NCBI GenBank assembly: GCA_041666305.1
Contig: JBAYHD010000004.1
Span: 3,946 to 67,945 of the forward strand
Length of the DNA: 64,000 bases
Source: Minisyncoccota bacterium
Lineage (GTDB): Bacteria > Patescibacteriota > Minisyncoccia > Phycocordibacterales > Phycocordibacteraceae
Direction of reading: 5' to 3'
This document shows positions 11,870-36,924 of this stretch, one piece after another (positions within the stretch are counted from its first letter, which is position 1; each line of letters begins with the position of its first letter). Both the position numbers and the translations under genes were made by a program. The notes beneath the pieces were generated by a model. That model worked only from the letters and a program-made list of their open reading frames with translations, did not search any database and was not told the origin of the DNA.

Positions 11870-11904
11870 GCAAAATAATTTTCGCGAAAATTATTTTGCT
11901 TTTT
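11870..11904. terminator. 30-nt perfect palindrome GCAAAATAATTTTCGCGAAAATTATTTTGC followed by TTTTT, overlapping the murB stop codon
   Basis: Perfect inverted repeat. It overlaps the last three murB codons and separates murB from the secA upstream region. Confidence 0.4.
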
Positions 11905-16926: not shown

Positions 16927-18687
16927 CTATGTTCTCTGCATTTTATAGAAATAGGAATCGTGGTTTTTGAGCAATTCCTCGGGCGTTCCGCGCTCCACGA
17001 TATGCCCGTGGCTAAGGACGAGAATGCTATCGGCTTCAGCGACCGTGGAGGGGCGGTGCGCGATGATAAGCACCGTCACTTTGCCGTGCAGTGCGCGAAT
17101 GGACTCGTGGATAAGCTTTTCCGACTCATGATCGAGCGCACTCGTCGCTTCATCAAGGATAAGGAGCGCGGGTCGGCTCACGAGCGCACGGGCAAGCGCA
17201 ATGCGCTGGCGCTGACCGCCTGAAAGCATGACGCCGCGGTCGCCCGTTATCGTTTGGAATCCTTCGGGCAATCCCATGATGAAATCGTAAATGTTCGCCT
17301 GCTTCGCAGCAGTCTCTATATCCCTTTCGGTCACCGTGTGATCATAAAACCGGATATTGTCCTCGATAGTGCTGTTGAGCAAGAACACGTCTTGCGACAC
17401 ATAGCCAATGTTCTTGCGCCAGACATCGAGAGCGATATGGGTGCTTGGCACGTCATCCAAAAAAAGCACTCCTTCGTTCGGCTTGAAGAGCCGGAGAAGA
17501 AGATCGGCGACCGACGTCTTTCCCGCGCCCGACGGCCCGACGAGCCCGACGGTTTCTCCCGCTCGTATGGAGAAATCAACGTTGTCAAGAATCGGTTTAC
17601 CCTCGTTGTACGAAAACGACACTCCTTTGAATGCAAGCTCCTTTTTGAAGACAAAGGGAGCGATACCCTCGGATGATTCCTTGTGCAGGTTAAGATTGTG
17701 CTTGAAGGCGGCGATATTCCGCGCGTAGGGCAAGAGTTCGTTCACTCCTTGAAGTGCGGCCTGGCCGGATTCAAGATAGGTGAATATTTTTTGTATCAAA
17801 TACAGCGACGCCGCAAATGAAATGATACTGAACTCCGGCGTGCGATACGTCAACAGGAAAAGCACGACCACGAGTACGATGCTCGCCGGCTGGAAAAAAC
17901 TGGAACTAACGGTGCGTACGAGTGCTTGTCGTATCGAAAGAGAACGCAATAAACGGATATGCGCGGTGCCGTCCGCAATAGCAGCACGCTCCACGCCCGC
18001 GGCTTTAACGGATTTCATGCCGATGATGTGCTCGCTCAAAAATTGCGCGAACTGTTTTTCCACCCCTGCCGCCTGGGTTCCGATGCGCCGAGCGCGACGG
18101 AGAAACGGCCGCAAAAAGAACACCAGGATAATTCCGCCGCCTAGCGCATAGAACGTCATGGTCGGTGAGATGTTGACGGCCACGAGAAGATACATGAGGA
18201 ATCCACTGAACGATTGGACGATCTGAGCGATCGAACCGAGAAGTCCGCCGGTTTGCTGAATATCTCGCACCAAGGTGTTATGCATCGTCCCTATTTTCTG
18301 TTTCAAAGTAAATGCCCATGACGAAAGGAGCGTCCGGCGGAGTACGTCCTCGCTTTCTTTGCCGAGAAAGTCCGCGCTTATCCAACCGCGAATGTATCCG
18401 AACACGATGACGGAGATCGCACGCAGAATGAATAGACAGAGAATGAAGCCGAGCAGATAGCGAAATTTGAACGGTAGGGAGAAAAAGCTGAAAAGCTCCT
18501 GAATGGTTTTCGTGATGAAATCCGTTGCCGCGCCGCCTCCGCCGTTGAAGAACGACATCAATGGGATGACCGCATTGATACCAATGCCTTCCAAAAGCGC
18601 GCTCAGGAAGCCAAAGACGGCGAGCGCCACGACATGCCAGCGATATCTACCGAACGCCCGCCAGAGCGTTATGAAAGCGTCTTTCAT
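16927..18687 (-). CDS. ABC transporter, fused permease/ATP-binding exporter (MsbA-like)
   Basis: Six N-terminal TM helices; Walker A GPSGAGKTS; signature LSGGQRQRIALARAL; Walker B LLILDEATSALD. Confidence 0.88.
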   Translation of the reverse strand: MKDAFITLWRAFGRYRWHVVALAVFGFLSALLEGIGINAVIPLMSFFNGGGGAATDFITKTIQELFSFFSLPFKFRYLLGFILCLFILRAISVIVFGYIRGWISADFLGKESEDVLRRTLLSSWAFTLKQKIGTMHNTLVRDIQQTGGLLGSIAQIVQSFSGFLMYLLVAVNISPTMTFYALGGGIILVFFLRPFLRRARRIGTQAAGVEKQFAQFLSEHIIGMKSVKAAGVERAAIADGTAHIRLLRSLSIRQALVRTVSSSFFQPASIVLVVVLFLLTYRTPEFSIISFAASLYLIQKIFTYLESGQAALQGVNELLPYARNIAAFKHNLNLHKESSEGIAPFVFKKELAFKGVSFSYNEGKPILDNVDFSIRAGETVGLVGPSGAGKTSVADLLLRLFKPNEGVLFLDDVPSTHIALDVWRKNIGYVSQDVFLLNSTIEDNIRFYDHTVTERDIETAAKQANIYDFIMGLPEGFQTITGDRGVMLSGGQRQRIALARALVSRPALLILDEATSALDHESEKLIHESIRALHGKVTVLIIAHRPSTVAEADSILVLSHGHIVERGTPEELLKNHDSYFYKMQRT

Positions 18688-19391
18688 ATGTTGGAGGGAT
18701 ATACGAGAGGGTATAATTTCTTTGCAAGCTCCAGGTCTTCATAGGTATCGATATCAGCCCCCCTTTCAAAGGGGAGAACATATTTCGTAAGGTCTTTTCC
18801 ATAAAACTTATTTTCTACAAGAAAATTCGCGATTTTTATCCACCGTATGGCTCCGCTGGGGCAATATATATCCTTCGGCAACAGCTTGGAATCAACTACA
18901 TATTTTTTGCCAAAAAAGAAATCCAGTTTCCCCTCTTGTTCCTGAAGTGCCCAAAAAGGATACAGCCACTCATACCTCAATACGCTCATTAAGCAGTTGG
19001 CTCCCGATTCAATGACCCGTGCATGCGACGCAGTGACATCCTCGCTCGTTCGCAGCGGACAATTAGGCATCAGGAGACAAAGATTTTCGAATGTCGTCTG
19101 CCCCACTTCTCGCAATACGTGCTGGGTAACCTCCTCCAAGGAAGCGGTGTCCCCCGAAAATTCTGCGGGACGGCGCACCGTCTTAACCCCATACGAAGAA
19201 GCTACGTGGAGTATTTCCTCAGAATCTGAGCTTACATATATGTGTGCGCCGAAAAGACCCGAATGTTGTGCCGCCTCAATGGTATACGCCAGCATGGGCT
19301 TGCCGTGGAAATCAACGATGTTTTTTTTAGGGATCCGTTTAGAACCTCCTCGAGCCGGGATGAGGCATATATTTTTTGTGGTGTCCGGCAT
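18684..19391 (-). CDS. CMP-nonulosonic acid synthetase (acylneuraminate cytidylyltransferase family, PseF/NeuA-like)
   Basis: N-terminal IPARGGSKRIPKKN, the hallmark of the CMP-NeuAc/CMP-Pse synthetase family. Confidence 0.8.
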   Translation of the reverse strand: MPDTTKNICLIPARGGSKRIPKKNIVDFHGKPMLAYTIEAAQHSGLFGAHIYVSSDSEEILHVASSYGVKTVRRPAEFSGDTASLEEVTQHVLREVGQTTFENLCLLMPNCPLRTSEDVTASHARVIESGANCLMSVLRYEWLYPFWALQEQEGKLDFFFGKKYVVDSKLLPKDIYCPSGAIRWIKIANFLVENKFYGKDLTKYVLPFERGADIDTYEDLELAKKLYPLVYPSNI

Positions 19392-19394
19392 AGA

Positions 19395-20348
19395 TCAGTG
19401 TGCAACGTACTTCGTGCTGTAAGCCTTTCGTGCCCCCGGATATTTCCGTAATGCTGGCTTCCCGGGCCATCCGGAATCCAGCGACAGGATGATGAACATC
19501 TGTTTTGTTTCGAGCGTATGATCCATCTCCCCGGCGGTCAACAAACCTTCATGCAGTTTTTCTCCGGGCCGGAGACCTATGAAACTGAGTTTGACTTTCT
19601 TCCCATTCGCATATTTCTTCACTGTTTCCTCCGCAAAGGCAACGATCGAATGTTCTTTCATTTTTAGCACGAAAATCTCTCCTCCCTTCATAAGGCGCGC
19701 GGCATCAAAGGTAAGACGGACCGCCTCGGGAATTTCCATGAAGAAGCGAAATGCTCGGCGATCAGTGATGGTCACCGGATCCCCCACTTCTATCTGCTTG
19801 CGCCAGAGATGGACCACTGAGCCTCGGGAATGCAGAACATTCCCAAAGCGCACGCAAGAAAACCTCGTACGCCCCATGCCGATGGTACCGTTCGCAGCTA
19901 TGATGAGGCGCTCCATCATGAGTTTGCTTGCACCTAATACAGACTCGGGACTAACTGCTTTATCGGTTGAGATGGCAATAACTTTTTCGAGATTGTGTCT
20001 GAGACTCACATCTATGACATTTTGCGTGCCAACCACATTCGTCTTCACGGCTTCAAAGGGATTATATTCACAGACCGGCACATGCTTCAGTGCCGCGGCA
20101 TGAAAACATATGTCAACATCCTTGAAAGCAAAATCGAGACGATCTTTGTCACGTACGTCGCCGATAAGATAGCGGAGACGCATATCCTCGCCAAGCTCTT
20201 GCCGCAGCTCATATTGTTTGTGTTCATCCCGACTGTAAATGCGTATTTGAGCGACATTGGTCATACGCAATTGCCGAACTATTTCGGAGCCGATGGAGCC
20301 CGTGCCGCCGGTGACCAATATTATTTTCCCGTCAAATATTCCTTTCAT
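19395..20348 (-). CDS. pseB: UDP-GlcNAc inverting 4,6-dehydratase (PseB/FlaA1/CapD family)
   Basis: Collinear with PseB: ILVTGGTGSIGSEIV, YSRDEHKQYEL, IGDVRDKDRL, HAAALKHVPVCEYNP, TNVVGTQNVI, ISTDKAV.P.SV.GASK, FGNVLHSRGSVV. Confidence 0.88.
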   Translation of the reverse strand: MKGIFDGKIILVTGGTGSIGSEIVRQLRMTNVAQIRIYSRDEHKQYELRQELGEDMRLRYLIGDVRDKDRLDFAFKDVDICFHAAALKHVPVCEYNPFEAVKTNVVGTQNVIDVSLRHNLEKVIAISTDKAVSPESVLGASKLMMERLIIAANGTIGMGRTRFSCVRFGNVLHSRGSVVHLWRKQIEVGDPVTITDRRAFRFFMEIPEAVRLTFDAARLMKGGEIFVLKMKEHSIVAFAEETVKKYANGKKVKLSFIGLRPGEKLHEGLLTAGEMDHTLETKQMFIILSLDSGWPGKPALRKYPGARKAYSTKYVAH

Positions 20349-21535
20349 ATTGTAGGGGCCTTATTGTTGTCGGTAAATTTCCTGAACACGGCGATGACGC
20401 GGTCCATATCTTTTTTCGGTATATGCGAATACAACGGCAAGGATAGCACACGCTCTGCCACATCATCGGTCACCGGAAGCAGTGTTCTTTTTTTTGCGAA
20501 CTGCCGATAGGCGGTCTGTCGATGGAGCGGCGGGTAGAAATACTTCCGTGTGGCAATATGGTGCTCTGCAAAAAAATCAAAGAGTTGGTCACGCGTATAA
20601 CCAAGCGTATCCGAATCAATGTAGACAGAGAGTATGTAATAGGTGGTCGTACTGCCGCGCGGGATTACCTGGAACCGTAGTCCGGGTTCAATTTCTGTAA
20701 GTTTGGATATCATATAGGCAGCCTTTGCGCGCCGATTTCCAAGATTTGTAGGAAGTTTCGCGAATGACCGAAGCCCGATGGCCGCATGAAGCTCCGACAT
20801 GCGCGCACTGAGCCCCACGAAGAGAGTATTGTTCGTTCCATCATCACCGTAGTTGCGCCCCAAGCGGACGAATTGCGCCAGTTCGTCGTTATTCGTAGCA
20901 ACGATGCCGCCTTCCCCGGCCGTCAATAATTTTATGGGACTGCAACTGAACACCTCTGCATCGCCAAAACTGCCCGCATGCCGTTTTCCATAGGTCGAGC
21001 CAAATGCATGCGCCGCATCAAAAATAAGTTTCAACGTATACTTCTTCGCTAAAGCTTCCAATTTCTTTACATCACATACGGCACCAAACACATGTGTGGC
21101 AAGTATCGCCGATGTTTTCGGCGTAATGAGCTTCTGTACGGATTTCGGATCGATTGTGTAGGTCCGAGGATTGATGTCGGCAAATACCGGCGTAAGACCG
21201 TTCCAGATGAGCGCATGGCCGGACGCCGAAAAAGTAAAACTCGGTATGATAACTTCCCCACGAAGCCCAAGACCTTTGAGCGCGAGCATGAGGCCAGAGG
21301 TACACGAGGAAACCGCAACACAGTGTTTTACGCCGAGATATCGGGCGGTCTTTTTTTCAAACTCGCGTACATGCACATGTGTCGTAAGCATACCGCTCGT
21401 CATAGTCTTTCTGAAAAGTGGGACGTAGGCAGAAAATGCCTCAAGCGTAGGCCGGGTCACGGGGATATACTTCGCAGACCGCGAAGGGGTCTTCGGGGGT
21501 GATTTTTTCATCTTTTCACTCATAGTATTAAACAA
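20345..21535 (-). CDS. pseC: DegT/DnrJ/EryC1/StrS-family PLP-dependent sugar aminotransferase (PseC-like by context)
   Basis: GEVIIPSFTFSASGHALIWNGLTPVFADI, ILATHVFGAVCDV, IFDAAHAFGSTY, FSCSPIKLLTAGEGG. A 4-nt overlap with pseB. Confidence 0.85.
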   Translation of the reverse strand: MFNTMSEKMKKSPPKTPSRSAKYIPVTRPTLEAFSAYVPLFRKTMTSGMLTTHVHVREFEKKTARYLGVKHCVAVSSCTSGLMLALKGLGLRGEVIIPSFTFSASGHALIWNGLTPVFADINPRTYTIDPKSVQKLITPKTSAILATHVFGAVCDVKKLEALAKKYTLKLIFDAAHAFGSTYGKRHAGSFGDAEVFSCSPIKLLTAGEGGIVATNNDELAQFVRLGRNYGDDGTNNTLFVGLSARMSELHAAIGLRSFAKLPTNLGNRRAKAAYMISKLTEIEPGLRFQVIPRGSTTTYYILSVYIDSDTLGYTRDQLFDFFAEHHIATRKYFYPPLHRQTAYRQFAKKRTLLPVTDDVAERVLSLPLYSHIPKKDMDRVIAVFRKFTDNNKAPTI

Positions 21536-21603
21536 AACCTAGACCGTCAAAGTTACCAAAAATAAAATTTTGCCGAGACAAACCGCGGCCCAATCCTAAC
21601 CGC

Positions 21604-22290
21604 CTAGTGCGATTTTGGCACGAAAAATCTACCCAAATCGTCGACTATTGTATCTTTGATCGTTGCTCCGCCGTAACATGTTTCTGCAGCGACAGAGCAC
21701 ACGGTCACTTTTGACTGCAATCCTTCGAAGACCTTGAATGCATCACGCAAAACACGAGGCGCGTGATTGGCAGAACTGACGGCATAGAACATGACCGAAT
21801 TCGTGTTGTATGTATCAGCGATAATGTTCCGTGCCGCGACGAGCCCATCTTGTGTAAACTGGCTCTTGGTGTCACATATCGATCTACTTTCAAGCCATTG
21901 TTTATAGACCGTTTCGTCCGCCCACATAGCATCATTGAATCGGTGCGGAAAATCTCGCTTGAGAGCGGAGAATGACTTCAAAGCCATATCAAGAAAGAAT
22001 TCAGATTCATACAACCCGTCTTTGATTCGGCTCGAGCCACTTGACCAAATGATACGGTCTGCGGCGATGTGCTGTGCGAGCCAAATGGTCATCGGCAACC
22101 GGCCTAATGCTCCCGTCTCTTTGTCGCCCCAGCACACAAGTGGTAGATCCTGGTGTGTTCCTTCAGACCCGATGTACTGAATGGTGTTTCGAGGAATATT
22201 CGGGTCTTCTGCGAGAGAGTACCCCAGGAAAAAAACAACATTTTTAGTGTCTCGATGATGAGCGCTATTGATAAGATTCCGGTCAGCCAT
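21604..22290 (-). CDS. Hypothetical protein (228 aa), no confident family assignment
   Basis: ORF with codon usage like its neighbours. It occupies the position where a PseG-type hydrolase would be expected but shows no GT-B motifs. Confidence 0.4.
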   Translation of the reverse strand: MADRNLINSAHHRDTKNVVFFLGYSLAEDPNIPRNTIQYIGSEGTHQDLPLVCWGDKETGALGRLPMTIWLAQHIAADRIIWSSGSSRIKDGLYESEFFLDMALKSFSALKRDFPHRFNDAMWADETVYKQWLESRSICDTKSQFTQDGLVAARNIIADTYNTNSVMFYAVSSANHAPRVLRDAFKVFEGLQSKVTVCSVAAETCYGGATIKDTIVDDLGRFFVPKSH

Positions 22291-22385
22291 AATGGATGGA
22301 TGAGATTATACACTACTGATTCAGGTATCCGTTCTGATAGGATCCCTTTAGAACCCTTACGGAAATTTGACAGGCAAAGAAATAG

Positions 22386-22856
22386 GTGATTAAATACAGG
22401 CAGACAGGAATTGCAATCAATGAAGACCTTTACAAGGAGAACACCATGACCAGCCGTTTTAAAAATCGACCGCCGTTGCCAAAGCTTGTGCACGGTCAGC
22501 CGACAGAGTGGCACTGGGTCGTGTACCACCCGAAAAATCTGGTTCTCAGCGATGAAACCGATATCGGGTGCTTCACTTCCATCCATGCTCAACATGGCGT
22601 CGTGATTGAGGACGAAGTGCAGATCGGTTCGCACTGCTCCATCTACTCAATGTCCAGCATCAGTGTGAGCGGAGAACCCGTTGTCGGCAAGGTAACCATC
22701 AAAAAAGGCGCCAGCGTCGGGTCTCACTCAACCGTGATGCCCGGTGTCACCATCGGCGAGGGAGCTGTCGTCGGTGCGCACAGTCTCGTCCTTACGGACA
22801 TTCCGGCGCATTGCATCGCGTACGGCGTGCCTGCAAAGGTGGTCAAGCAACTCTAG
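22386..22856 (+). CDS. Left-handed beta-helix (hexapeptide-repeat) sugar N-acetyltransferase (PglD/NeuD-like); likely start 22446 with AGGAG 8 nt upstream
   Basis: Hexapeptide repeats VQIGSHCSIYS, VGKVTIKKGASVGSHSTVMPGVTIGEGAVVGAHSLV. Confidence 0.8.
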   Translation: MIKYRQTGIAINEDLYKENTMTSRFKNRPPLPKLVHGQPTEWHWVVYHPKNLVLSDETDIGCFTSIHAQHGVVIEDEVQIGSHCSIYSMSSISVSGEPVVGKVTIKKGASVGSHSTVMPGVTIGEGAVVGAHSLVLTDIPAHCIAYGVPAKVVKQL

Positions 22857-22881
22857 ATCTCACGTCTAGGCGCGAGACCAA

Positions 22882-22909
22882 CCCCCGGTATGCCGGGGGT
22901 TTCCTTTTT
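22882..22909 (+). terminator. Rho-independent terminator (CCCCCGGTATGCCGGGGG stem, then TTTCCTTTTT)
   Basis: 7-bp GC stem plus T-run, immediately after the stop of the acetyltransferase gene. Confidence 0.7.
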
Positions 22910-22920
22910 ACGTGGGCAGT

Positions 22921-23976: not shown

Positions 23977-24063
23977 AGGTTAGTATCGTAGCGCGAGTGT
24001 CGTCATTAGTATAACTGCGTATTGGACAAAAAAGAAACACCTCCAAAACTGGCACCAGAAAAT

Positions 24064-25997: not shown

Positions 25998-26019
25998 GGG
26001 AATGTGAGGAAATGATACC

Positions 26020-27667: not shown

Positions 27668-27670
27668 AGG

Positions 27671-28930
27671 TTATGGCGTAAATATAAAACGCCGCATGAT
27701 ACTAAAGCTCGATAGTGCGATCAGGAGGGCCACAAAAAATTCAGACGCAATGTACCAAAGACCGAGTTCGGTAAGAAGATACACTCCGCAAGCGTTGAGA
27801 CCGATATTCATGATATTCAAGAAGAGGAACCGTATGAATTGCGCACGCGCTGCGGCAGAGATGCTATTTTGGAATGTCCAAAACTTCTGGAACGCGAAGC
27901 TCACCGCAATGGATATCGCGTATGCAATCGTTGCCGAGTAGAGATACCAGAGCGAGAACCATTCGGTGAGCACATACAGCAAAGAGAGCGTTGTGAGAAA
28001 AGCAAGAATACCCGTGATGAGAAATCGCACCATACGCCACGGGTCAAGTAATTCGTTCCCGGCAGAAGCATGCATCGCTTTATCGAGGATTACTCGAAAC
28101 TGCTCGCTCATAAGCAGAGCCTTTTCTGCTGTGCGAGCCGATGAAAGATACCATGCGCTATTGGCATGATTCCTATTGAACTCGGAGCGTTCTGCGACTC
28201 CTGGATGGAAAACAAGTTCGACGGTCCCCGCTCGATACTTTTGCAACGTCGAAAAGCCGGCGGCGATGTTGTCAACGGTCATGTGTCCGGAAAATAAAAA
28301 ACCAAGTAGGTAGTCATTTGTCCGGATGCCCCTTGCCGCCGCATACGCGCGATTACGATGCCCCAGAAAAAGAAAGGCATATCGGGTCAGGGCATGCATA
28401 CCAATATATGTTCGCACATTCCCGCGTGCGTAATAGAACGGCTCCGTCGTGATACGGATGTACCGTATGCCGGGAAGCGCCGAGACGATGTCGAAGACGA
28501 ACGGGATCATGTGCACATGCTGATGTCCGTTCGCAGCATCCACCGCAACCTCAGCCCGTATCCGTTGCCATTGCGCAGAAAGCTCGCGACTAACCTGTTC
28601 CCGCAATTCTGTCCGCCGCGAGCTTGAACTGAACAGGTAGGTGAGCAGAAGCGAGGTGCTGGAATTCTTGAACATACCGTGCGCATCGACGAGATGGGGG
28701 ATTTCTTTCGGATCCAAAAGCGCTTTCCCTTCGGTAAGATTCAGGTGCACCGCCAACGTAAGTCCGTCATGGCGTTTTTGATATTCTTGGAGCGCGTAGT
28801 CTGTTGCTTCACCGTTCGCAAGAATGGAGGTAGAGGTTATTGCGCCCCTATCAAATGTTTCGAGTATCGAGTCGGTCACGCGTTCCGTCAGACCGAGATC
28901 ATCGGCACTAACGATAAAAGAGTGGTTCAT
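27671..28930 (-). CDS. Fusion protein: YdjC/ChbG/HpnK-like carbohydrate deacetylase domain plus C-terminal GtrA-family membrane domain
   Basis: N-terminal FIVSADDLGL...HLNLTEG...HQHVHM (YdjC-like metal/substrate motifs). The C-terminal 120 aa has 4 TM helices with the GtrA-like FAFQKFWTF. Confidence 0.65.
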   Translation of the reverse strand: MNHSFIVSADDLGLTERVTDSILETFDRGAITSTSILANGEATDYALQEYQKRHDGLTLAVHLNLTEGKALLDPKEIPHLVDAHGMFKNSSTSLLLTYLFSSSSRRTELREQVSRELSAQWQRIRAEVAVDAANGHQHVHMIPFVFDIVSALPGIRYIRITTEPFYYARGNVRTYIGMHALTRYAFLFLGHRNRAYAAARGIRTNDYLLGFLFSGHMTVDNIAAGFSTLQKYRAGTVELVFHPGVAERSEFNRNHANSAWYLSSARTAEKALLMSEQFRVILDKAMHASAGNELLDPWRMVRFLITGILAFLTTLSLLYVLTEWFSLWYLYSATIAYAISIAVSFAFQKFWTFQNSISAAARAQFIRFLFLNIMNIGLNACGVYLLTELGLWYIASEFFVALLIALSSFSIMRRFIFTP

Positions 28931-28933
28931 GGG

Positions 28934-30427
28934 TCATTGTTTCTCCAGTATCGTATACCGACTGAAATTTTGCACTGGCTTGTACTTCGACATATCAACA
29001 TCGGGCACGGTCCCTGTATTTAGAAGAATGTAATCGACGGTTCCGTTGGCGATGGCTTGGAGAGCGTCCGTACCCAGTATACCGATGGTCGGATGAGGTT
29101 TGATGTATTGATAGTAATTGAGCGACGGCAAAAGAATCACTGCCTCCGGCGCATTATAAACGAATATACTCGCGTTCGGCGGTAAGGAGTTAAGCGCCGC
29201 CGTCAGGTCGCGCGTCATGTGGCTACTATAGTACGCCGCGACGAATGAAGCGTTCGCCGTTTGATAGCATTGCGCAACGATAAGGAGTGAGAGCACAAGC
29301 CATGGCAAGACCCTTGCGATACGCGGTATGCCGATGCGCTCGCGTACCCACTCCTCCATACGCCACAATGCATGCGATACGAACAACAACCCGACCATAA
29401 TGGCTGGGAATAAATACCGATACCATCCCGGCATGCGCAGGAATGCGAGCATCACGAGCCCTGAAAAGATAAAGCCGACCGTCTCAGCTGAAGAAACAGA
29501 TTCTCCTGCACGACGTCGCACAAACATTGCACATCCCCAGAGCGCAAAGACCGCGAGTGCATAAAAAGGCGTTACATCGGTAACAAACAGCAATAGATTC
29601 GCCAACACGTTTGTCGTGAGGTCAGTCACTTCGTACGGATTGGTGTAAAACGTGAGAACGTTCGCGAGCGTGTCGTGCGTGCCGAATTGGAGTAGGAACC
29701 ACGGCACCATGGTCGCGATAAAGACCAGGGTGGCAAGGACTACCCCTCCCCAGCGTATCGGAACGCTTTTACGATAGAGGAACCAGACGATGGCAAGCGC
29801 AGGCAACAGAAGAATAAAAATGGGCTTTGTGGCGATGCATAATCCGGCCGCTAAGGCACTTACTCCATACGCCGAGAGACTGCGGTACCCGCTACGCTCC
29901 AGGTACACTAACGCAATGAGCGCCACGACGAAGAAAAAAAGTCCCGGTACTTCCCCCAACACGCTTTTACCGTTGCCGTACAGCATCGGAAAGCTCGCAA
30001 TGAGAAATGCGCTCCACAGCGCGAAACGCGTCCCAAACAACAGCGTGATGAGATACACCGTCGCCAAAAAGAATGAGACGATGAACATAACCATCACCGC
30101 ACGTCCCGATAACACCCCGACTCCAAACAACTGGTAAGAGAGCGCGACAGGAACTATGAGCGGATACCCTCCGGTTATGGTACTTGCAGAGGTGAATTCA
30201 CCAGGAGCCACTTGTAATACTTGTTGCCCGGATAACATGAAATTTTGCGCGGTCTGAGTGTAATATCCTTCGTCGTACCAGATATGCGGCGCTTCCGACA
30301 GACGGTAGGTCGCAAAAAACAAAAGAAGAGCCCCCGCAAGCGCGAAAAGCATCCATGTACCCATCGTCCGATGTGTCACTGTTGTGAATTTCATATCGCC
30401 AGTATACACATCGTTATACATCGACAT
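28934..30427 (-). CDS. GT-C-fold membrane glycosyltransferase (ArnT/PMT_2-like, polyprenyl-phosphate-sugar dependent)
   Basis: About 11 TM helices; N-terminal loop WYDEGYYTQTAQN; short C-terminal soluble domain. Confidence 0.65.
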   Translation of the reverse strand: MSMYNDVYTGDMKFTTVTHRTMGTWMLFALAGALLLFFATYRLSEAPHIWYDEGYYTQTAQNFMLSGQQVLQVAPGEFTSASTITGGYPLIVPVALSYQLFGVGVLSGRAVMVMFIVSFFLATVYLITLLFGTRFALWSAFLIASFPMLYGNGKSVLGEVPGLFFFVVALIALVYLERSGYRSLSAYGVSALAAGLCIATKPIFILLLPALAIVWFLYRKSVPIRWGGVVLATLVFIATMVPWFLLQFGTHDTLANVLTFYTNPYEVTDLTTNVLANLLLFVTDVTPFYALAVFALWGCAMFVRRRAGESVSSAETVGFIFSGLVMLAFLRMPGWYRYLFPAIMVGLLFVSHALWRMEEWVRERIGIPRIARVLPWLVLSLLIVAQCYQTANASFVAAYYSSHMTRDLTAALNSLPPNASIFVYNAPEAVILLPSLNYYQYIKPHPTIGILGTDALQAIANGTVDYILLNTGTVPDVDMSKYKPVQNFSRYTILEKQ

Positions 30428-31667
30428 ATCCTCGCCCGATCAAGGTGTATGCGTCTTTTGGGGGATCTTTTATTTTGGATGGCGTGACCTCGAAACGGCA
30501 GTCTTCTTTTTTAGCGAGTCGCACGGCATCAACGCCCTCATCGTCTCGATGCTTGGCACAATCATCTTTGAGCACCCATGTCCCATCGTCATTCCCCAGC
30601 CATGCATGCGTATCGCGATGCTGGTTTATCAAATAATAAAAACCTGCTTCGGTCATGCCGAGCCAATCCAAAAAAAGCGGAAGTGTTTTCGGAGCAACGG
30701 CATTGTAGCGAGCGACTAAATCAATTCCTTCTTCTCGAGTGAGTCGTTTCAAGCGTATCTCTCGACACGCATGATCGGTCACCTTCCCATATCCATACTT
30801 CAAGAACTTTATATAGTCATGGATATCCGAATAATGGAAACAATCAACATCATTGTAGGTGTCGAATGTCCGCGTTTGCGAAGCGCTCTCATATTCGTAT
30901 AGCCGGATCATCTCTTCGTGCTGAGCTTTCGAATCCCAGCGAATATAATTCCCCAGATAGATGCCGCGCACGCCGACTTTCTCTATTTCCTTGTCGTGCG
31001 GATACGCATACGGCGCGAGATCATCGGCCGTCACATTCATGGTCTCATCGACAAGATCCTCCGCCTCATATCCCATAAGGTCATGGTCCTTCCTGTATTT
31101 GCGCGTCATTTCAACTTCGTCCGTATGCGAGAACATACCAACTTGATCGAGCCCCTGGTGCGCGCCCCAAATTATGAGAGGTATCTTGAACCGAACCGCT
31201 ACCTGCACCGGAAACACCGTCTGCCCGGCGATGCAGTGCCAATACATGCTTCCCATTTTTCGTAGTGTCGCTCGTGTGACATTCTTCACCTTTTCCGGAC
31301 TTACGGTCATCGTCATGAGGTCGCACCCAAAGAGCGTGCGCAAATAGGCGAGATTCCGTATGCCCCGCTCAGTGTTGTACTGCTTGTTATAGGTGACAAG
31401 AAGCGGTCGCAACCCGAGTTTCTTCATCACGGTGTGGACGATAAAGTACGAATCACGCGCGCCGGAGACGGGAACCACGCAGTCATAATTATTCCCGGAA
31501 CGATTCTTGTACGAGGCCGTTATCTTTTTCAGATGTTCGAATCGCGCATTCCAGTCAAGCGAATCTTTTTCTTCATGCACTCTGCATCCACTGCACACGC
31601 CGTTCGCGTCGAACGTGAGGTCAAGCGGATGATTCGCCGGATAGAGGCATCGCGTGCAGTATTTCAT
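30414..31667 (-). CDS. N-acetyl sugar amidotransferase (WbpG/PseA-like, PP-loop ATPase family), paralogue 1
   Basis: N-terminal Cys cluster CTRCLYPANHP...GVCSGC; PP-loop DCVVPVSGARDS; 35-45% identical to the ORF at 33163..34278. Confidence 0.78.
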   Translation of the reverse strand: MKYCTRCLYPANHPLDLTFDANGVCSGCRVHEEKDSLDWNARFEHLKKITASYKNRSGNNYDCVVPVSGARDSYFIVHTVMKKLGLRPLLVTYNKQYNTERGIRNLAYLRTLFGCDLMTMTVSPEKVKNVTRATLRKMGSMYWHCIAGQTVFPVQVAVRFKIPLIIWGAHQGLDQVGMFSHTDEVEMTRKYRKDHDLMGYEAEDLVDETMNVTADDLAPYAYPHDKEIEKVGVRGIYLGNYIRWDSKAQHEEMIRLYEYESASQTRTFDTYNDVDCFHYSDIHDYIKFLKYGYGKVTDHACREIRLKRLTREEGIDLVARYNAVAPKTLPLFLDWLGMTEAGFYYLINQHRDTHAWLGNDDGTWVLKDDCAKHRDDEGVDAVRLAKKEDCRFEVTPSKIKDPPKDAYTLIGRGYVDV

Positions 31668-32614
31668 ATGACTTCTTTAGGGTGGTACTCAAAGCGTAAT
31701 TTCTCAAGAACCGCATCATCTTGCTTCGCGAGACGACCGGCATCATCGAATGTCGTATGTGCATAGGTGGCATACGTATCGAGCCGTATCGGGAAGTCCG
31801 ATTTCAAAAATGCCTTGGCAATCGTTACGCTGTGTTCCGTAAAATGGAAAGAATTACCCACAGCAACTGCATCCGCATGCCCATTCTGGAACGCATCTGC
31901 AATATGCTGCGGATGACCGCAACCGCCCGCCGCAACCACGGGAATATCCACGGCTTCCGAAACACGCCGGATAAGTTCCGTGTCGAACCCTTTCTTTGAC
32001 CCGTCGCGGTCAATGGAGCGTATAAAAATCTCGCCTGCCCCCTGCGCTGCACAGGATCTCGCAACTTCGACCGGGTCTTTCCCTGTTCCGGTTCGACCGG
32101 AGTCTGTGAACGCTTCATAGCGTCCTTCACCGACTTCTTTTGCGTCTATGGAAACAACGACGCACTGATTTCCGAAAATACGAGCGGCCTCATGTATGAG
32201 CTCCGGATGTTCGATAGCCGCGCGATTGATAACGACCTTGTCCGCACCCATCCGGATAAGCTGGCGTATCGTCTCGACCGAATTGATGCCGCCGCCAACG
32301 GTGAGTGGCACCATACTCTTGTCCGCGAGTCGTGCGAGGAGACCAAGGTCCAACGTTCGATTCTCACGACTTGCTTCGATATCAACCACCACTATCTCAT
32401 CAGCGCCCCATTGATTGAGGAACTCAACCGCTATTTCAGGCGAGCCGATGGGCAGATATTTTTTAAAGCCCACACTCTGGACGACGATGCCGTCTTTCAC
32501 AATGAGGCTGGCGATGATGCGTTTGGAGAGCATATTAATTTTTGGTGTGTTCCATAAAAGCGCGCAGGAGGCGCAGGCCGCTCGTCTGGCTTTTCTCGGG
32601 ATGGAACTGAACAC
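31664..32614 (-). CDS. HisF-like imidazole-glycerol-phosphate-synthase cyclase homologue (WbuZ-type, glycan acetamidino formation); likely start 32533
   Basis: IIASLIVKDGIVVQSVGF, DEIVVVDI, VPLTVGGGI, VAAGGCGHPQH. These are HisF (beta/alpha)8 motifs. Confidence 0.82.
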   Translation of the reverse strand: MFSSIPRKARRAACASCALLWNTPKINMLSKRIIASLIVKDGIVVQSVGFKKYLPIGSPEIAVEFLNQWGADEIVVVDIEASRENRTLDLGLLARLADKSMVPLTVGGGINSVETIRQLIRMGADKVVINRAAIEHPELIHEAARIFGNQCVVVSIDAKEVGEGRYEAFTDSGRTGTGKDPVEVARSCAAQGAGEIFIRSIDRDGSKKGFDTELIRRVSEAVDIPVVAAGGCGHPQHIADAFQNGHADAVAVGNSFHFTEHSVTIAKAFLKSDFPIRLDTYATYAHTTFDDAGRLAKQDDAVLEKLRFEYHPKEVI

Positions 32615-33350
32615 CGTAGATGTTGTCCTTTTGCACAGCGGCCGTTATCTCTTCGCCGTACGAACATGCCGCGGCGATATATTCTTTTTCCGTTTGGAAA
32701 TAAAAACTGTGGTCAAAATAGAAGCGTGCGCCCTTCGGCACGGACGCAAAGAGTGGTTCCGACCGGTACACCATAAGTTCATTCCAGCCCACATGCGGAA
32801 CGCGCACTGAGGCGGCAGGAATGCGCACCACATGCCCCGGAATGAATCCGAGTCCTTGATGCAATCCTCCCTCAATCGAATCTTCGGCGAGCACCTGCAT
32901 ACCGAGACAGATGCCCAGAAGCGGCTTTTTCTTTTCAACGACTTCTCTCCGCAAAACTTCAATAATGTCGCGCTTCTTAAGGTTCAGCATAGCTTCCTCA
33001 AAGGCGCCAACTCCCGGCAATATATATGCCCTCGCTTTTTGTATGTCCTCTTTTTTATGCGAAACGGCGTAGGAATAGCCGAGCCGCTCAAGCGCATTCG
33101 TGACCGAACGATGGTTTCCTACGCCATAATCAATGACGAGTACGTCAGGTTTTCGAGTAGTGTCAGACATACGCGTGTTTGAGCTGCCATTCTCCCGAGG
33201 CATTCTTCTCGAACAGTTCTTGATTTCGATAAGATTCAGCGACCTTCCAAAATTCTTTTTCTGAGATCTCCAGGTACTTGCAGAACCGGTGGATATATTC
33301 TGCGGAACATTTGCCATCATACTTTGCAACGAGCTCAAAGCCCTTCTCAC
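32535..33350 (-). CDS. HisH-like class I glutamine amidotransferase (WbuY-type); likely start 33170 (MSDTTRKPDVLVIDYG)
   Basis: VLVIDYGVGNHRSV; catalytic GICLGMQVL; HVGWN; FHPEKS. Confidence 0.82.
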   Translation of the reverse strand: MRRALSSLQSMMANVPQNISTGSASTWRSQKKNFGRSLNLIEIKNCSRRMPRENGSSNTRMSDTTRKPDVLVIDYGVGNHRSVTNALERLGYSYAVSHKKEDIQKARAYILPGVGAFEEAMLNLKKRDIIEVLRREVVEKKKPLLGICLGMQVLAEDSIEGGLHQGLGFIPGHVVRIPAASVRVPHVGWNELMVYRSEPLFASVPKGARFYFDHSFYFQTEKEYIAAACSYGEEITAAVQKDNIYGVQFHPEKSQTSGLRLLRAFMEHTKN

Positions 33351-34278
33351 GCGTCATCCGGCCATACCGAATGAGTTCGCATACTTCGTCAGTCACTTTA
33401 CCGAACCCGTATTTAAAGTATTTGATCATTTGATTGACGAACACGAAATCCTCGTCAAGCGCTTCGAACGGATGGAGCGCTCCGCGTTCAAGTGGCGTAT
33501 CGGTGCGCACCTCGAGCCCGTGCGATATGGAAAAAGCGGCGTTATCTACTTTGGTAAAATTGGGCCAAAAATACCCGAGGTACACTACTTGCACATTTGC
33601 CCACTCCGTTTCTTCACCCGAGGGATATGTATAGGGAATAAGATGTTGTGTCGTGACATCGTCGTTCAAATACAGAGCACTCCCTCCTCCTATGGTATTG
33701 GCGTTCCGTATATTATTACCGTTCCAATCAAGCGATCCGACGGTCAAATCTCCCATCTGCGTCGCGGCATTTTCCCCCAGAAATACGAGTGGGATCTTAT
33801 ATGCAATAGATAGCCTTGGCAGTGTTGCGTACAGTGCGGTCTCGGTGGACTTGGCCAAGTTGCCATATTCAAGAAAACCTTTTCGCATGAGTTTTTTCCA
33901 TGTTTGCGGGTCAGGCATAACATTAATGACATCGAACCCGAGCGAGATAAGATTAGAAATATTGTACGCTCCAAGGTCCGTGATTTGTTCAGGAGGATAA
34001 TTACATGAAACGAGAAGCGGTTTGAGCCCGAGAGAATCACGTGCATACATCGCTTGGCGCGTACTGTCCTTACCACCAGAAATGCCGATGATGCAATCGT
34101 AATCTGAATGATTGTTCTTTCTTGTCCGCTCAATTATATTCTCGAGCTCCTGATGACGGACACTCCAATCAACATCCTTAAGTTGTTCCCTATAGTGACA
34201 CGCCGGGCACACACCTTCGGCGTCAAATCGTATCCCTGGTCGCGTATCTGGTTGAACACATTTTTTACAATACTTCAT
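33163..34278 (-). CDS. N-acetyl sugar amidotransferase (WbpG/PseA-like), paralogue 2
   Basis: CKKCVQPDTRPGIRFDAEGVCPAC; PP-loop DCIIGISGGKDS. Confidence 0.78.
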   Translation of the reverse strand: MKYCKKCVQPDTRPGIRFDAEGVCPACHYREQLKDVDWSVRHQELENIIERTRKNNHSDYDCIIGISGGKDSTRQAMYARDSLGLKPLLVSCNYPPEQITDLGAYNISNLISLGFDVINVMPDPQTWKKLMRKGFLEYGNLAKSTETALYATLPRLSIAYKIPLVFLGENAATQMGDLTVGSLDWNGNNIRNANTIGGGSALYLNDDVTTQHLIPYTYPSGEETEWANVQVVYLGYFWPNFTKVDNAAFSISHGLEVRTDTPLERGALHPFEALDEDFVFVNQMIKYFKYGFGKVTDEVCELIRYGRMTREKGFELVAKYDGKCSAEYIHRFCKYLEISEKEFWKVAESYRNQELFEKNASGEWQLKHAYV

Positions 34279-36922: not shown

Positions 36923-36924
36923 GG

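Follow-up and report, generated by a model that had tools for sequence, protein, structure and literature searches.

The window, by which we mean the whole 64-kb stretch of DNA analyzed, holds between positions 18684 and 34278 part of a glycan island, over 50 kb long, in the genome of a Candidatus Paceibacterota (CPR) bacterium. The CPR origin proposed in the earlier note is borne out by two of the proteins discussed below, the 228-aa protein and the synthase, which match, at 100% identity, NCBI proteins from a MAG designated "Candidatus Paceibacterota bacterium"; this name leads to the phylum Minisyncoccota, which includes the class Patescibacteriia. All genes listed in that note are present, in position as well as strand, and the genes described here lie on the minus strand unless indicated. 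A dehydratase operon begins with the 228-aa open reading frame (21604–22290) and continues through a DegT/DesI-like PLP sugar 4-aminotransferase (20345–21535), a short soluble Polysacc_synt_2 UDP-HexNAc 4,6-dehydratase (19395–20348), and a CMP-nonulosonate synthetase, or cytidylyltransferase (18684–19391), to an ABC exporter (16927–18687), its last gene. Overlaps of 4 nt join the dehydratase to the aminotransferase (20345/20348) and the exporter to the cytidylyltransferase (18684/18687). A small left-handed beta-helix (LbH) sugar N-acetyltransferase of 136 aa (22446–22856, plus strand) is divergent from this operon and convergent with the gene for a NeuB-family nonulosonate synthase (22921–23976). 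Between the two convergent genes, a scan for terminator-like sites located a G+C-rich hairpin (22880–22901, no strand assigned) with a 9-bp stem containing 7 G-C pairs. It is probably a bidirectional terminator, a reading based on its position and not on counts, since such sites are no commoner in the region than in shuffled sequences. The cassette order, NeuB/LbH (opposite strand)/DUF218–aminotransferase–dehydratase–(cytidylyltransferase)–ABC exporter, is seen again in a Saccharibacteria MAG (locus L010) and in loci L104, L105, and L109/L110, and the arrangement is therefore not due to chance.

The synthase carries Pfam NeuB and SAF domains and scores 345.7 bits on the NeuB model (cut-off 399.65), ahead of 306.8 bits on PseI (cut-off 340.25); a canonical PseI reaches 516 bits on the latter. 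In a quick neighbor-joining tree of 91 synthases, built without support values or experimentally characterized references, it falls in a third clade outside the PseG-linked one, and the loci of this third clade have neither PseG nor NeuC nearby. Members of the clade on long contigs are accompanied by LegB (517.4 bits, cut-off 475) and LegC (549.6 bits, cut-off 420) equivalogs as well as a PtmE-like nucleotidyltransferase, and homologues at 65–70% identity reside in clusters of the form LegB-LegC-PglD-x-NeuB-CMP-transferase-PtmE. The synthase is 66% identical to a protein of Ca. Brocadia fulgida annotated at NCBI as N,N'-diacetyllegionaminic acid synthase. The clade is also frequently linked to WbuX/HisH/HisF genes (L001, L024, L030, and L034). 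The earlier note had set a pseudaminic-type synthase against NeuB sensu stricto; the protein does not group with PseI, but its neighbors in the tree are synthases of Leg-type clusters and not NeuB sensu stricto.

The cytidylyltransferase (Pfam CTP_transf_3) has PseF (TIGR03584) as its best NCBIfam match, at 167.8 bits against a cut-off of 205.7, and its PDB neighbors are NeuA/CMP-Neu5Ac synthetases. In the case of a true LegB/LegC cluster, the cytidylyltransferase likewise matches PseF best and below the cut-off (176.4 bits), so the PseF match does not discriminate.

The dehydratase (Pfam 339.9 bits, with the TDK motif present) had been identified as PseB, collinear with the Campylobacter enzyme, an identity that is not confirmed. 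PseB is its best NCBIfam match, but the score of 310.9 bits lies below the cut-off of 407.75 and Leu replaces the catalytic Tyr of PseB. The Tyr is kept by all PseG-linked dehydratases and by H. pylori FlaA1, and the window's enzyme has VLGASK where every PseG-linked homologue has LYGATK. In a neighbor-joining tree as quick as that of the synthases, with neither support values nor characterized references, it groups with dehydratases of NeuC-linked operons, outside the PseG-linked clade. The dehydratase, aminotransferase, and LbH acetyltransferase all give their top scores against the NeuB-NeuC-LbH-aminotransferase-dehydratase operons of L007, L049, L057, L059, and L074, the dehydratases of which share with the window's enzyme a Met or Leu at the PseB Tyr position. 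By raw similarity to PDB entries, the window's dehydratase is nearer to the inverting enzymes FlaA1 (247 bits), Pen (245), FnlA-like (226), and CapE (224) than to the retaining PglF (162). Inversion at C5, if the enzyme performs it, would exclude legionaminic acid proper as the product.

The aminotransferase (Pfam DegT, 342.5 bits) resembles DesI and perosamine synthases rather than PseC, as evidenced by PDB scores of 228.7 bits for DesI and 119.5 for H. pylori PseC; its NCBIfam scores (DesI 299, PseC 213.8, LegC 178.9) are each below cut-off. The acetyltransferase (Pfam Hexapep) likewise differs in fold from its pseudaminic counterpart, being an LbH protein whereas PseH is a GNAT. Its ATG at 22446 is preceded by an AAGGAG ribosome-binding site, with an alternative start at 22386; it scores 70.2 bits on the NeuD/PglB/VioB model TIGR03570, in the C-terminal part only, and its PDB neighbors are small sugar N-acetyltransferases. 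In a Nanoarchaeota locus (L002), an LbH domain and an aminotransferase form one fused protein, which ties the acetylation and amination steps together.

A canonical pathway of PseB, PseC, acetyltransferase, PseI, and PseF, with PseG located elsewhere or replaced, would lead to CMP-Pse5Ac7Am. The best NCBIfam matches of the dehydratase and the cytidylyltransferase agree with it, as do the best PDB matches of the dehydratase (H. pylori FlaA1/PseB) and of the synthase (C. jejuni PseI, 198 bits, with NmNeuB at 168). We nevertheless regard it as very improbable. Every Pse model scores below its cut-off, the synthase and the dehydratase both fall outside the PseG-linked clades, the aminotransferase is far from PseC, and neither a GNAT PseH nor PseG occurs within the 64 kb. 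Together with the Leu for Tyr replacement and the Leg-type synthase clade, these observations leave the pseudaminic-type label of the earlier note unsupported. The placement of the synthase in the clade of LegB/LegC clusters and the closeness of the three front-end enzymes to NeuC-linked operons favor the legionaminic family (legionaminic acid or an epimer) as the more probable stereochemistry. Since none of the core-pathway enzymes attains an equivalog cut-off, their substrates are all assigned by analogy.

The step that would free the sugar from its nucleotide has no recognizable enzyme in the window. Two PseG seeds, run by tblastn against all 64 kb with a limit of E < 10, gave noise only, consistent with the earlier observation on PseG (genuine PseG proteins score 256–294 bits on the PseG model), PseH is absent across the same 64 kb, and no gene for NeuC/LegG is recognizable there. 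Because no known NDP-sugar hydrolase of either kind is present, the pathway in the window is incomplete and not, as had been thought, complete-looking. The window covers 64 kb of an 83.9-kb contig, and NeuC or PseG could therefore lie elsewhere in the genome.

The 228-aa protein had been pointed out as occupying the PseG slot. Fold and transitive homology place it as a divergent member of the DUF218/YdcF superfamily; it is soluble, with no membrane anchor predicted directly from its sequence, and its gene is under purifying selection. At least four further related loci also have a DUF218-superfamily gene in this position, and this retention makes the protein a candidate, if a weak one, for the missing step. 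The slot is thus conserved and its occupant assigned to a superfamily, while nucleotide-sugar hydrolysis is a role that it may supply. No catalytic activity is known for any DUF218 protein.

It is also possible, though we consider it doubtful, that the DUF218 protein has no part in making the sugar and instead works with the ABC exporter and Wzy_C in the lipid-carrier and export machinery, or is a SAM-using tailoring enzyme, with the hydrolase encoded elsewhere in the genome. In L107, the gene that directly follows a DUF218 gene of the L010 type encodes a close homologue (925 bits) of the window's ABC exporter, and neither a dehydratase nor an aminotransferase intervenes; in L106, a gene of this type adjoins SecG/GroES. 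The window's protein gives no significant alignment with the L010-type proteins, and the genes of its own close relatives turn up away from sugar clusters, in settings that are unrelated or belong to mobile elements. For the DUF218 proteins ElyC and SanA, effects on the metabolism of peptidoglycan and of the lipid carrier (undecaprenyl-phosphate/lipid II) are described, and the PDB title of YdcF is that of an S-adenosyl-L-methionine-utilizing enzyme. However, ElyC and SanA have a membrane anchor, which the CPR proteins do not, and five loci retain the slot between acetyltransferase and aminotransferase despite divergence of its occupant beyond pairwise recognition. L107 itself has a second DUF218 gene immediately upstream of a NeuB.

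The absence of a recognizable hydrolase can also be accommodated by two unrelated pathways that are adjacent by chance, a reading that we find unlikely. The dehydratase, aminotransferase, and LbH enzyme would then make a UDP-2,4-diacetamido-2,4,6-trideoxyhexose, a bacillosamine-like direct glycosyl donor on which the amidotransferases may act, and the NeuB homologue and cytidylyltransferase would produce a different nonulosonate, starting from a precursor for which no NDP-sugar hydrolase is required. The synthase indeed ends a different operon from that of the dehydratase and aminotransferase, with an opposite-strand gene and the hairpin between, and L107 has NeuB and DUF218 without either of those enzymes. 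WbuX-type modules also amidate sugars other than nonulosonates, such as L-FucNAm in E. coli O145 and ManNAc3NAmA in P. aeruginosa O5 and Methanococcus. Translational coupling, however, ties the cytidylyltransferase to the dehydratase operon and not to the synthase, the five genes occur together in L010, L105, and L109, and they are contiguous, with fusions, in L002. In addition, the related synthases of the clade have full diamino-sugar clusters around them.

The amidino module consists of two WbuX-family N-acetyl-sugar amidotransferases (30414–31667 and 33163–34278), which score 344.5 and 318.9 bits on TIGR03573 (cut-off 203.2), as expected from their earlier assignment. Between them, in the same order as in L010, lie a HisF-like cyclase subunit of WbuZ/AglZ type (31664–32533; WbuZ TIGR03572 270.4 bits with a cut-off of 299.7, HisF 253.8, AglZ 234.6) and a HisH-like glutaminase subunit of WbuY type (32535–33170; TIGR01855 235.9 bits with a cut-off of 105.4, Pfam GATase), both with refined starts. 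The two amidotransferases are 29% identical. The first has a variant PP-loop, SGARDS, in common with its L010 orthologue; the second has the canonical SGGKDS, as does every other family member detected in which a PP-loop is recognizable.

The CPR bacterium, an organism with a tiny genome, has genes for a sialic-acid-like surface sugar that is CMP-activated and decorated with amidine groups, and these genes do not fit the pseudaminic acid pathway. On balance, we favor a mosaic route whose product is a CMP-activated 5,7-diacylamido-3,5,7,9-tetradeoxy-nonulosonic acid, in keeping with the earlier proposal of an activated 5,7-diamino sugar with an acetamidino module. UDP-GlcNAc would be dehydrated at C4/C6 by the Polysacc_synt_2 enzyme, after which the DesI-like aminotransferase would place an amino group at C4 and the LbH enzyme would N-acetylate it. 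Once the sugar is freed from its nucleotide, the NeuB-family synthase would condense it with PEP, and the cytidylyltransferase would activate the resulting nonulosonate. The WbuX/HisH/HisF enzymes would convert one or both acetamido groups to acetamidino groups.

Methylation may be a further step. A SAM methyltransferase with an N-terminal zinc ribbon (24064–25059, Pfam Methyltransf_23) scores 406 bits against one encoded downstream of the cytidylyltransferase in a Brocadia Leg-type cluster (L101) and 405 bits against a homologue in L021. As a conserved companion of the window's synthase clade, it is a candidate nonulosonate-tailoring methylase.

The interval had been treated, by implication, as one pathway, but 24064–30427, with its methyltransferases, GT2, SDR, YdjC-GtrA fusion, and GT-C protein, represents a different module. 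Absent from the syntenic locus L010, the genes at 25056–30427 encode an ArnC/PgfS-like GT2 (25056–25997; NCBIfam PgfS 269.3, ArnC 172.4 bits), an SDR epimerase (26020–26880), a methyltransferase (26963–27667), a YdjC deacetylase fused to a GtrA transmembrane domain (27671–28930; NCBIfam HpnK/YdjC, Pfam YdjC and GtrA_DPMS_TM), and a 497-aa GT-C/PMT_2-like membrane glycosyltransferase (28934–30427, weak Pfam PMT_2). We read them as a separate Pgf/Lgm-like polyprenyl-phosphate-sugar module for glycosylation outside the membrane, not as part of nonulosonate synthesis.

Candidate transferases do adjoin the biosynthesis genes, as had been anticipated. A 626-aa TagF-like GT-B protein (34322–36202, Pfam Glyphos_transf 27.2) has a C-terminal domain that resembles Tannerella BFO_1060 (NF046086 53.6 bits, cut-off 200; TIGR04396 23.8), a nonulosonate transferase family whose role has been demonstrated genetically in T. 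forsythia (PMC5420450). This protein may transfer the CMP-activated sugar. Export and ligation of the glycan could then involve the ABC exporter and a Wzy_C membrane protein. The exporter, of MsbA/PglK/HepA type, scores below cut-off on all three NCBIfam models (HepA-family 331.5, MsbA 299.5, PglK 235.8 bits); it adjoins the cassette in L010 and L105 as well and is a candidate flippase for a lipid-linked glycan. The Wzy_C protein (12982–15168, Pfam Wzy_C 68.8 bits), of O-antigen ligase/O-oligosaccharyltransferase type with C-terminal TPR repeats, is a candidate for the final transferase. Its gene lies outside the interval first described and is given as context; L010 has a homologue in the corresponding place, as does L107 (335.7 bits).

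The gene list that an earlier note drew up for 18684-34278 agrees with our ORF listing and HMM scans, and the window ORF layout resolves the region into two minus-strand operons with one plus-strand gene in between. Operon A comprises, in order of transcription, WbuX amidotransferase paralogue 2 (33163-34278), a HisH-like gene (32535-33170), a HisF-like gene (31664-32533), WbuX amidotransferase paralogue 1 (30414-31667), a GT-C protein (28934-30427), a YdjC-GtrA fusion (27671-28930), a methyltransferase (26963-27667), an SDR (26020-26880), an ArnC/PgfS-like GT2 (25056-25997), a zinc-ribbon methyltransferase (24064-25059), and the NeuB-family synthase (22921-23976). Operon B starts with a 228-aa ORF (21604-22290), followed by a DegT aminotransferase (20345-21535), a Polysacc_synt_2 4,6-dehydratase (19395-20348), a CTP_transf_3 cytidylyltransferase (18684-19391), and an ABC exporter (16927-18687), with 4-nt overlaps at 20345/20348 and 18684/18687. 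The plus-strand gene encodes a left-handed beta-helix (LbH) acetyltransferase and probably starts with the ATG at 22446, which is preceded by an AAGGAG site and gives a protein of 136 aa; it is convergent with the synthase gene across a G+C-rich hairpin (22880-22901) and divergent from the 228-aa ORF. A promoter scan returned site counts equal to or below those in shuffled sequence, and we therefore make no promoter claim. SecA, Obg, GatB, and MurB are encoded upstream in the window, the remainder of which consists mostly of glycan genes. Plus-strand ORFs are few in the stretch between the Wzy_C gene and the ABC-exporter operon, where one at 15240-15914 has a weak match to an IS200-like Y1 transposase (23.2 bits).

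Two of the window proteins, the 228-aa one and the synthase, have 100% identical counterparts at NCBI in a "Candidatus Paceibacterota bacterium" MAG, on a contig of up to 83.9 kb. The name resolves to the phylum Minisyncoccota, home of Patescibacteriia, and the closest syntenic locus among GTDB species representatives (L010) comes from a Saccharibacteria MAG. On these identities and this synteny, the CPR origin that the earlier note thought likely therefore stands. Identities between this locus and the window are 80% for the synthase, 70% for the dehydratase, 64% for the aminotransferase, 73% for the LbH acetyltransferase, 66% for the cytidylyltransferase, and 69-70% for the amidotransferases. 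Scans of the window for tRNAs and Rfam families found nothing and were of no use for taxonomy. The first 4000 nt of the window have a G+C content of ∼60%, compared with ∼50% elsewhere, for which no rRNA, tRNA, or Rfam match accounts.

The earlier note described the pathway as being of the pseudaminic acid (Pse) type. The synthase scores 306.8 bits on the PseI model TIGR03586, short of the cut-off of 340.25, and scores higher, at 345.7 bits, on the NeuB model; the true PseI of a Colwellia locus that also encodes PseG reaches 516.1 on PseI and 320 on NeuB. We gathered 95 loci with NeuB homologues from genomes and metagenomes and labelled each according to whether it encodes PseG (searched for with seeds validated at 256-294 bits), NeuC-type Epimerase_2, and other pathway enzymes. 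A neighbor-joining tree of 91 synthases, labelled by this gene context in place of experimentally characterised LegI, PseI, and NeuB references, contains one group linked to PseG, a large one linked to NeuC, and a third clade without either gene nearby. The window synthase lies deep inside the third clade (L001, L021-L043, and L101-L103), apart from the PseG-linked synthases. Members of this clade on long contigs, which include Ca. Brocadia fulgida (L101) and a Vicingaceae genome, are 65-70% identical to the window synthase, and the Brocadia enzyme bears the NCBI name N,N'-diacetyllegionaminic acid synthase. Their clusters encode LegB, LegC, a PglD-type acetyltransferase, a GT2-like protein, the synthase, a cytidylyltransferase, and a CBS/NTP_transferase (PtmE-like) protein, in that order. 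In the Brocadia locus, the sole one of these scanned with NCBIfam, LegB (517.4, cut-off 475) and LegC (549.6, cut-off 420) are both above the trusted cut-offs, and the synthase and cytidylyltransferase give the same sub-threshold NeuB/PseI and PseF pattern as those of the window. Since a LegB/LegC cluster produces this pattern, sub-threshold PseI and PseF matches are not an indication of Pse. The window synthase clusters with the synthases of LegB/LegC-bearing loci, a LegI-type assignment made by tree grouping and identity, with an HMM library that holds no dedicated LegI model. One NeuB homologue, in a "Sphingobacteriaceae" MAG (L003:10001-11051, on an 821-kb contig), has no single open frame over the matched stretch: frame 1 contains 21 stop codons, and two ORFs share the similarity to the window synthase. 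It would be a pseudogene with a frameshift or the product of an assembly error.

The cytidylyltransferase scores 167.8 bits on the PseF model TIGR03584 (cut-off 205.7). On this model its counterpart from a LegB/LegC cluster reaches 176.4, so that the model does not separate Pse from legionaminic acid (Leg) at this level; as the scores of this enzyme are similar against both kinds of cluster, we dropped it as a discriminator. The dehydratase reaches 310.9 bits on PseB (TIGR03589, cut-off 407.75) and, at 59.6 bits on TIGR04180 (cut-off 475), it is not LegB. Its scores against PDB entries are 247 bits for FlaA1/PseB, 245 for Pen, 226 for FnlA-like, 224 for CapE, and 162 for PglF. At the position of the FlaA1 catalytic Tyr (Y141) it has Leu, within a motif that reads VLGASK in the window and the syntenic Saccharibacteria locus and LYGATK in FlaA1 and all five PseG-linked homologues; NeuC-linked dehydratases have Met or Leu there. 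The window enzyme shares the non-Tyr residue with PglF/CapE-type enzymes, and it may be either retaining or inverting. In a neighbor-joining tree the dehydratase falls outside the PseG-linked clade and groups with those of operons encoding NeuB, NeuC, LbH acetyltransferase, aminotransferase, and dehydratase (L049, L057, L059, and L074) and with that of a Nanoarchaeota locus.

The aminotransferase falls below the cut-offs of both PseC (TIGR03588, 213.8 bits against 423.5) and LegC (TIGR04181, 178.9 against 420). Its best NCBIfam match is DesI (299 bits), its best relatives are in NeuC-linked operons, and among PDB entries it resembles DesI and perosamine synthase (228.7 and 189 bits) rather than H. 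pylori PseC (119.5). The acetyltransferase is a small LbH enzyme, not a GNAT like PseH; it matches TIGR03570 over the C-terminal part only (70.2 bits, cut-off 160.8) and has no PglD_N domain, which its homologues in Leg clusters carry. In a Nanoarchaeota locus (L002), an LbH acetyltransferase is fused to a DegT aminotransferase (7322-8854, minus strand, 510 aa), which ties the acetylation and amination steps together. A second fusion there joins a cytidylyltransferase to a short-chain dehydrogenase (11067-12599, plus strand, 510 aa). Both fusion genes adjoin a NeuB homologue, and the locus has neither PseG nor NeuC.

The lack of a PseG in the window, which the earlier note had pointed out, is borne out by HMM, phmmer, and tblastn searches. 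Two bona fide PseG seeds (TIGR03590, 256.5 and 294.1 bits) gave no phmmer or tblastn match in the window, nor did any of the window ORFs tested match PseG in NCBIfam. Likewise, a PseH seed (TIGR03585, 96.5 bits, above the cut-off of 93.1) found nothing in the 64 kb by tblastn, and an Epimerase_2 seed for NeuC/LegG, taken from a NeuC-linked operon (L007, 262 bits on Pfam), had no match in the window. With the known NDP-sugar hydrolases all missing from the 64 kb, the pathway is not the complete-looking one of that note.

On the basis of these data, the pathway is most likely a mosaic route to a CMP-activated 5,7-diacylamido-3,5,7,9-tetradeoxy-nonulosonate. Its back end, the synthase, evidently comes from the clade that LegB/LegC clusters use, and its front end (the Polysacc_synt_2 dehydratase, DesI-like aminotransferase, and small LbH enzyme) is of the kind found in archaeal and other NeuC-linked operons. 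With the Pse pathway (PseB, PseC, PseH, PseG, PseI, PseF, and the amidotransferase PseA) the window shares a short soluble Polysacc_synt_2 dehydratase with its best HMM and PDB matches to PseB/FlaA1, a WbpG/PseA-like amidotransferase, and CMP activation of the sugar. It differs in having Leu for the Tyr of PseB, LbH in place of GNAT, no PseC equivalog, no PseG, and a synthase outside the PseI clade. We consider a product of the Pse family improbable, and the type named in the earlier note is not supported: no Pse equivalog model reaches its cut-off, the synthase and dehydratase lie outside the PseG-linked clades, and PseH and PseG were not found in the 64 kb. Annotation by sub-threshold PseB, PseF, and PseI matches would mislabel such a pathway as pseudaminic acid biosynthesis.

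We lean instead towards a product of the Leg family. With the Leg pathway (LegB, LegC, LegH, LegG, LegI, LegF, and PtmE in C. jejuni, and the UDP-dependent variant in Legionella and Acinetobacter) the window shares the reaction logic of dehydratase, aminotransferase, LbH acetyltransferase, NeuB-family synthase, and CMP-transferase, as well as a synthase 65-70% identical to those of LegB/LegC-equivalog clusters. It differs in that the dehydratase is Polysacc_synt_2 rather than LegB type, the aminotransferase is not LegC, the acetyltransferase lacks PglD_N, and there is neither a NeuC/LegG hydrolysing 2-epimerase nor a PtmE-like nucleotidyltransferase. With a retaining dehydratase, the product would be legionaminic acid. 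The PDB neighbours of the enzyme invert C5, and inversion by the enzyme itself would allow an epimer, 8-epi-legionaminic acid for example, or a new sugar.

The 228-aa ORF occupies the slot in which the earlier note would have placed PseG. It has an 82% identical orthologue in the same slot of two related loci (L109/L110), with a dN/dS of 0.27, and its AlphaFold model has a pLDDT of 81.5 and a pTM of 0.82. The family profile has 285 representatives among 1.84 billion proteins; 37 of its 51 remote matches belong to Pfam DUF218, and no other family is matched by any of the 51. The protein itself scores 16.5 bits (E 0.008) against PF02698, below the gathering score of 27.6, so that its membership in DUF218 comes through these intermediates and the YdcF fold. 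Taken together, these data establish the 228-aa ORF as a real gene for a divergent soluble member of the DUF218 superfamily. It has the motif order of the YdcF-ElyC-SanA proteins and transitive sequence homology to them, and it stands apart from them in being soluble, in its place within a nonulosonate cassette, and in its score below the Pfam gathering threshold.

In the three loci with synthases 79-83% identical to that of the window (L010, L104, and L105), a bona fide DUF218 gene lies in the corresponding slot, with the aminotransferase gene on one side and the opposite-strand LbH gene on the other, and its product is not pairwise alignable with the 228-aa protein. A metagenomic relative of the window organism (L107, 455-2125 and 8001-15002), with a near-identical ABC exporter (925 bits against that of the window), carries two DUF218 genes, one of them directly upstream of a different NeuB homologue, beside methyltransferases, KduI-like proteins, and an aldo-keto reductase. 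This conservation makes the case for giving the unfilled nucleotide-sugar hydrolysis step to DUF218. We tentatively propose, as an idea more likely wrong than right, that in CPR bacteria a soluble DUF218/YdcF-fold protein replaces PseG/NeuC and cleaves the nucleotide off the 2,4-diacetamido-2,4,6-trideoxyhexose, whether or not it also epimerises C2. The counter-evidence is substantial. In the metagenomic relative, which has neither dehydratase nor aminotransferase, the second DUF218 gene, of the type in the syntenic Saccharibacteria locus, lies directly upstream of the ABC exporter/Wzy_C backbone. A further DUF218 gene of this type adjoins SecG/GroES (L106). The 228-aa sequence family is found in none of the 95 other NeuB loci searched and does occur in unrelated surroundings and in those of mobile elements. 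The contigs that carry two homologues with 54-55% identity to the 228-aa protein (L019:744-1406 and L020:1112-1774) also encode a DUF3987 protein and an integrase of the phage type, so that the sequence family also travels on integrative elements; with relatives of 50-55% identity in unrelated or integrase/DUF3987 contexts, we rejected the notion that it is dedicated to nonulosonate clusters. Our literature search found no defined reaction for any member of the DUF218 superfamily and no link between DUF218 and nonulosonic acids. The position of the ORF in the PseG slot thus holds, with the slot conserved and the superfamily recognised, and the protein in it is a candidate hydrolase. If it does act in this way, it would be a third, non-homologous solution to the hydrolysis step and the first defined reaction for the superfamily of ElyC and SanA; it would close a recurrent gap in predicted nonulosonate pathways and offer a biochemical way into a large family of unknown function with effects on the integrity of the cell envelope in E. 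coli and Salmonella.

Other candidates for the hydrolase were set aside. The window encodes no homologue of the ORFs directly upstream of NeuB in the Saccharibacteria locus (351 aa, with an N-terminus that is hydrophobic by eye) and in the Nanoarchaeota locus (362 aa, with a weak TIM-barrel match). The GT2-like protein of the Leg-type clade is, like PseG, PseH, and NeuC, not found anywhere in the 64 kb even at tblastn E<10, and the GT2 of the window itself is a full-length ArnC/PgfS-type enzyme.

In ∼25 loci of the Leg-type clade (L101:9188-10000, L102:9127-9999, and L103:9126-10004, and also L001, L003, and L021-L043), the gene for the GT2-like protein, of ∼270-290 aa, is the direct neighbour of the NeuB homologue and most often lies immediately upstream of it. 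It has no NCBIfam match, and Pfam Glycos_transf_2 is matched by one of the three long-contig copies (L102). The loci contain LegB/LegC-type genes and no NeuC/LegG or PseG, and the protein may be a non-homologous replacement of the hydrolysing 2-epimerase, in parallel to the DUF218 case.

The acetamidino module is as the earlier note described it: HisH and HisF homologues flanked by two WbpG-like amidotransferases. The genes adjoin and overlap. Both amidotransferases exceed the cut-off of TIGR03573 (344.5 and 318.9 bits against 203.2), HisH exceeds that of TIGR01855 (235.9 against 105.4), and HisF scores best on the WbuZ model, slightly below its cut-off (270.4 against 299.7). The order WbuX2-HisH-HisF-WbuX1 is kept in the syntenic Saccharibacteria locus, and WbuX/HisH/HisF sets are common beside synthases of the window's clade (L001, L024 with two sets, L030, and L034). 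The two WbuX paralogues are only 29% identical; they may between them modify both N-acyl groups, serve different sugars, or work as a heteromer. Paralogue 1 and its Saccharibacteria counterpart (L010:2622-3827), and hence both CPR lineages, have the PP-loop variant SGARDS, whereas paralogue 2 and every other detected family member with a recognisable PP-loop have SGGKDS. The same set of PP-loop amidotransferase, HisH-like glutaminase, and HisF-like cyclase makes up WbuX/WbuY/WbuZ of E. coli O145, the WbpG system of P. aeruginosa O5, and AglX/Y/Z of Methanococcus. The window differs from these in having two paralogous amidotransferases around a single HisH/HisF pair, one with a conserved variant loop, and in a target sugar that we infer. 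By analogy, the module would turn an acetamido substituent of the nonulosonate into an acetamidino one. Both 5-acetamidino and N-methyl-acetimidoyl derivatives of Leg are known. A homologue of the zinc-ribbon methyltransferase encoded beside the synthase occurs in the Brocadia cluster (406 bits), and the window enzyme may methylate the sugar or its amidine.

The earlier note treated 18684-34278 as one pathway, but 25056-30427 holds a separate module of the polyprenyl-phosphate-sugar type, which is an island neighbour and not a step in nonulosonate synthesis. It encodes the ArnC/PgfS-like GT2 (PgfS, 269 bits), an SDR epimerase, a methyltransferase, a YdjC deacetylase fused to a GtrA transmembrane domain, and a GT-C protein of 497 aa, and it is not present in the syntenic Saccharibacteria locus. 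We take this architecture to be that of the polyprenyl-phosphate-sugar systems that glycosylate outside the membrane, S. mutans Pgf (PgfS/PgfE/PgfM), Bordetella LgmABC, and ArnC-ArnD-ArnT, with which it shares a GT2, an epimerase, a YdjC deacetylase, a GtrA-type flippase domain, and a GT-C protein; the fusion of YdjC and GtrA and the extra methyltransferase set it apart from them. The gene content suggests polyprenyl phosphate as the carrier of a de-N-acetylated amino sugar, which would be attached outside the membrane.

Sialic-acid-like sugars are found on flagella, S-layers, and capsules, where they have roles in host contact, phage recognition, and immune evasion, and CPR bacteria live attached to host cells. 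To our knowledge, the surface glycans of CPR bacteria are almost unstudied. Our literature search found no work joining "nonulosonic" and "Patescibacteria"; "pseudaminic acid" and "Patescibacteria" occur together in one avian gut microbiome study, and a large synthase phylogeny paper mentions neither CPR nor PseG. Nonulosonic acids are widespread, and their presence in CPR bacteria is therefore not very surprising. What is new is the variant, a mosaic pathway prone to mis-annotation as Pse, with two distinct amidotransferases and a conserved DUF218 protein in place of the known hydrolases.

For transfer and export, the window offers several candidates. Members of the BFO_1060 family in Tannerella have been shown genetically to add a Pse or Leg derivative to the O-glycan (PMC5420450). 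A 626-aa protein encoded downstream of the amidino module matches the model of this family, NF046086, with 53.6 bits (cut-off 200), over model positions 197-363 and residues 457-621. We regard it as a candidate nonulosonate transferase from this match in its C-terminal GT-B domain; its gene adjoins sugar-tailoring genes, as do those of the T. forsythia transferases (Tanf_01245/TFUB4_00887/BFO_1060). Compared with these, the match is limited to the C-terminal ∼165 residues, and the window protein is ∼180 residues longer (626 versus 445 aa). The ABC exporter is MsbA/PglK/HepA-like, and the Wzy_C/TPR protein (12982-15168) belongs to a family that includes O-antigen ligases and PglL-type O-oligosaccharyltransferases. 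Both are conserved beside the cassette in the Saccharibacteria locus and both occur in the metagenomic relative (L107), and they are predicted to act in glycan transfer and export.

Further along, a methyltransferase, a DUF711 protein, a 368-aa NTP_transf_3 nucleotidyltransferase, and a LicD-family protein are encoded in a row (36230-39984) and may form a module for LicD-type decoration with a phospho-substituent. The island continues through 39948-63498, where several ORFs have no family match (e.g., 42844-44640, 598 aa) and the others include two GT9-like proteins, a GT4, a sugar C-methyltransferase (Methyltransf_13/14), a GFO/IDH/MocA oxidoreductase, a GDP-mannose 4,6-dehydratase, a transketolase-like protein, and a zinc alcohol dehydrogenase. 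In all, glycan-related sequence takes up more than 50 kb of the 64-kb window, a high proportion for a CPR genome: a Paceibacterota genome of ∼1 megabase devotes this much to glycan genes, including those for a predicted amidine-bearing nonulosonate.
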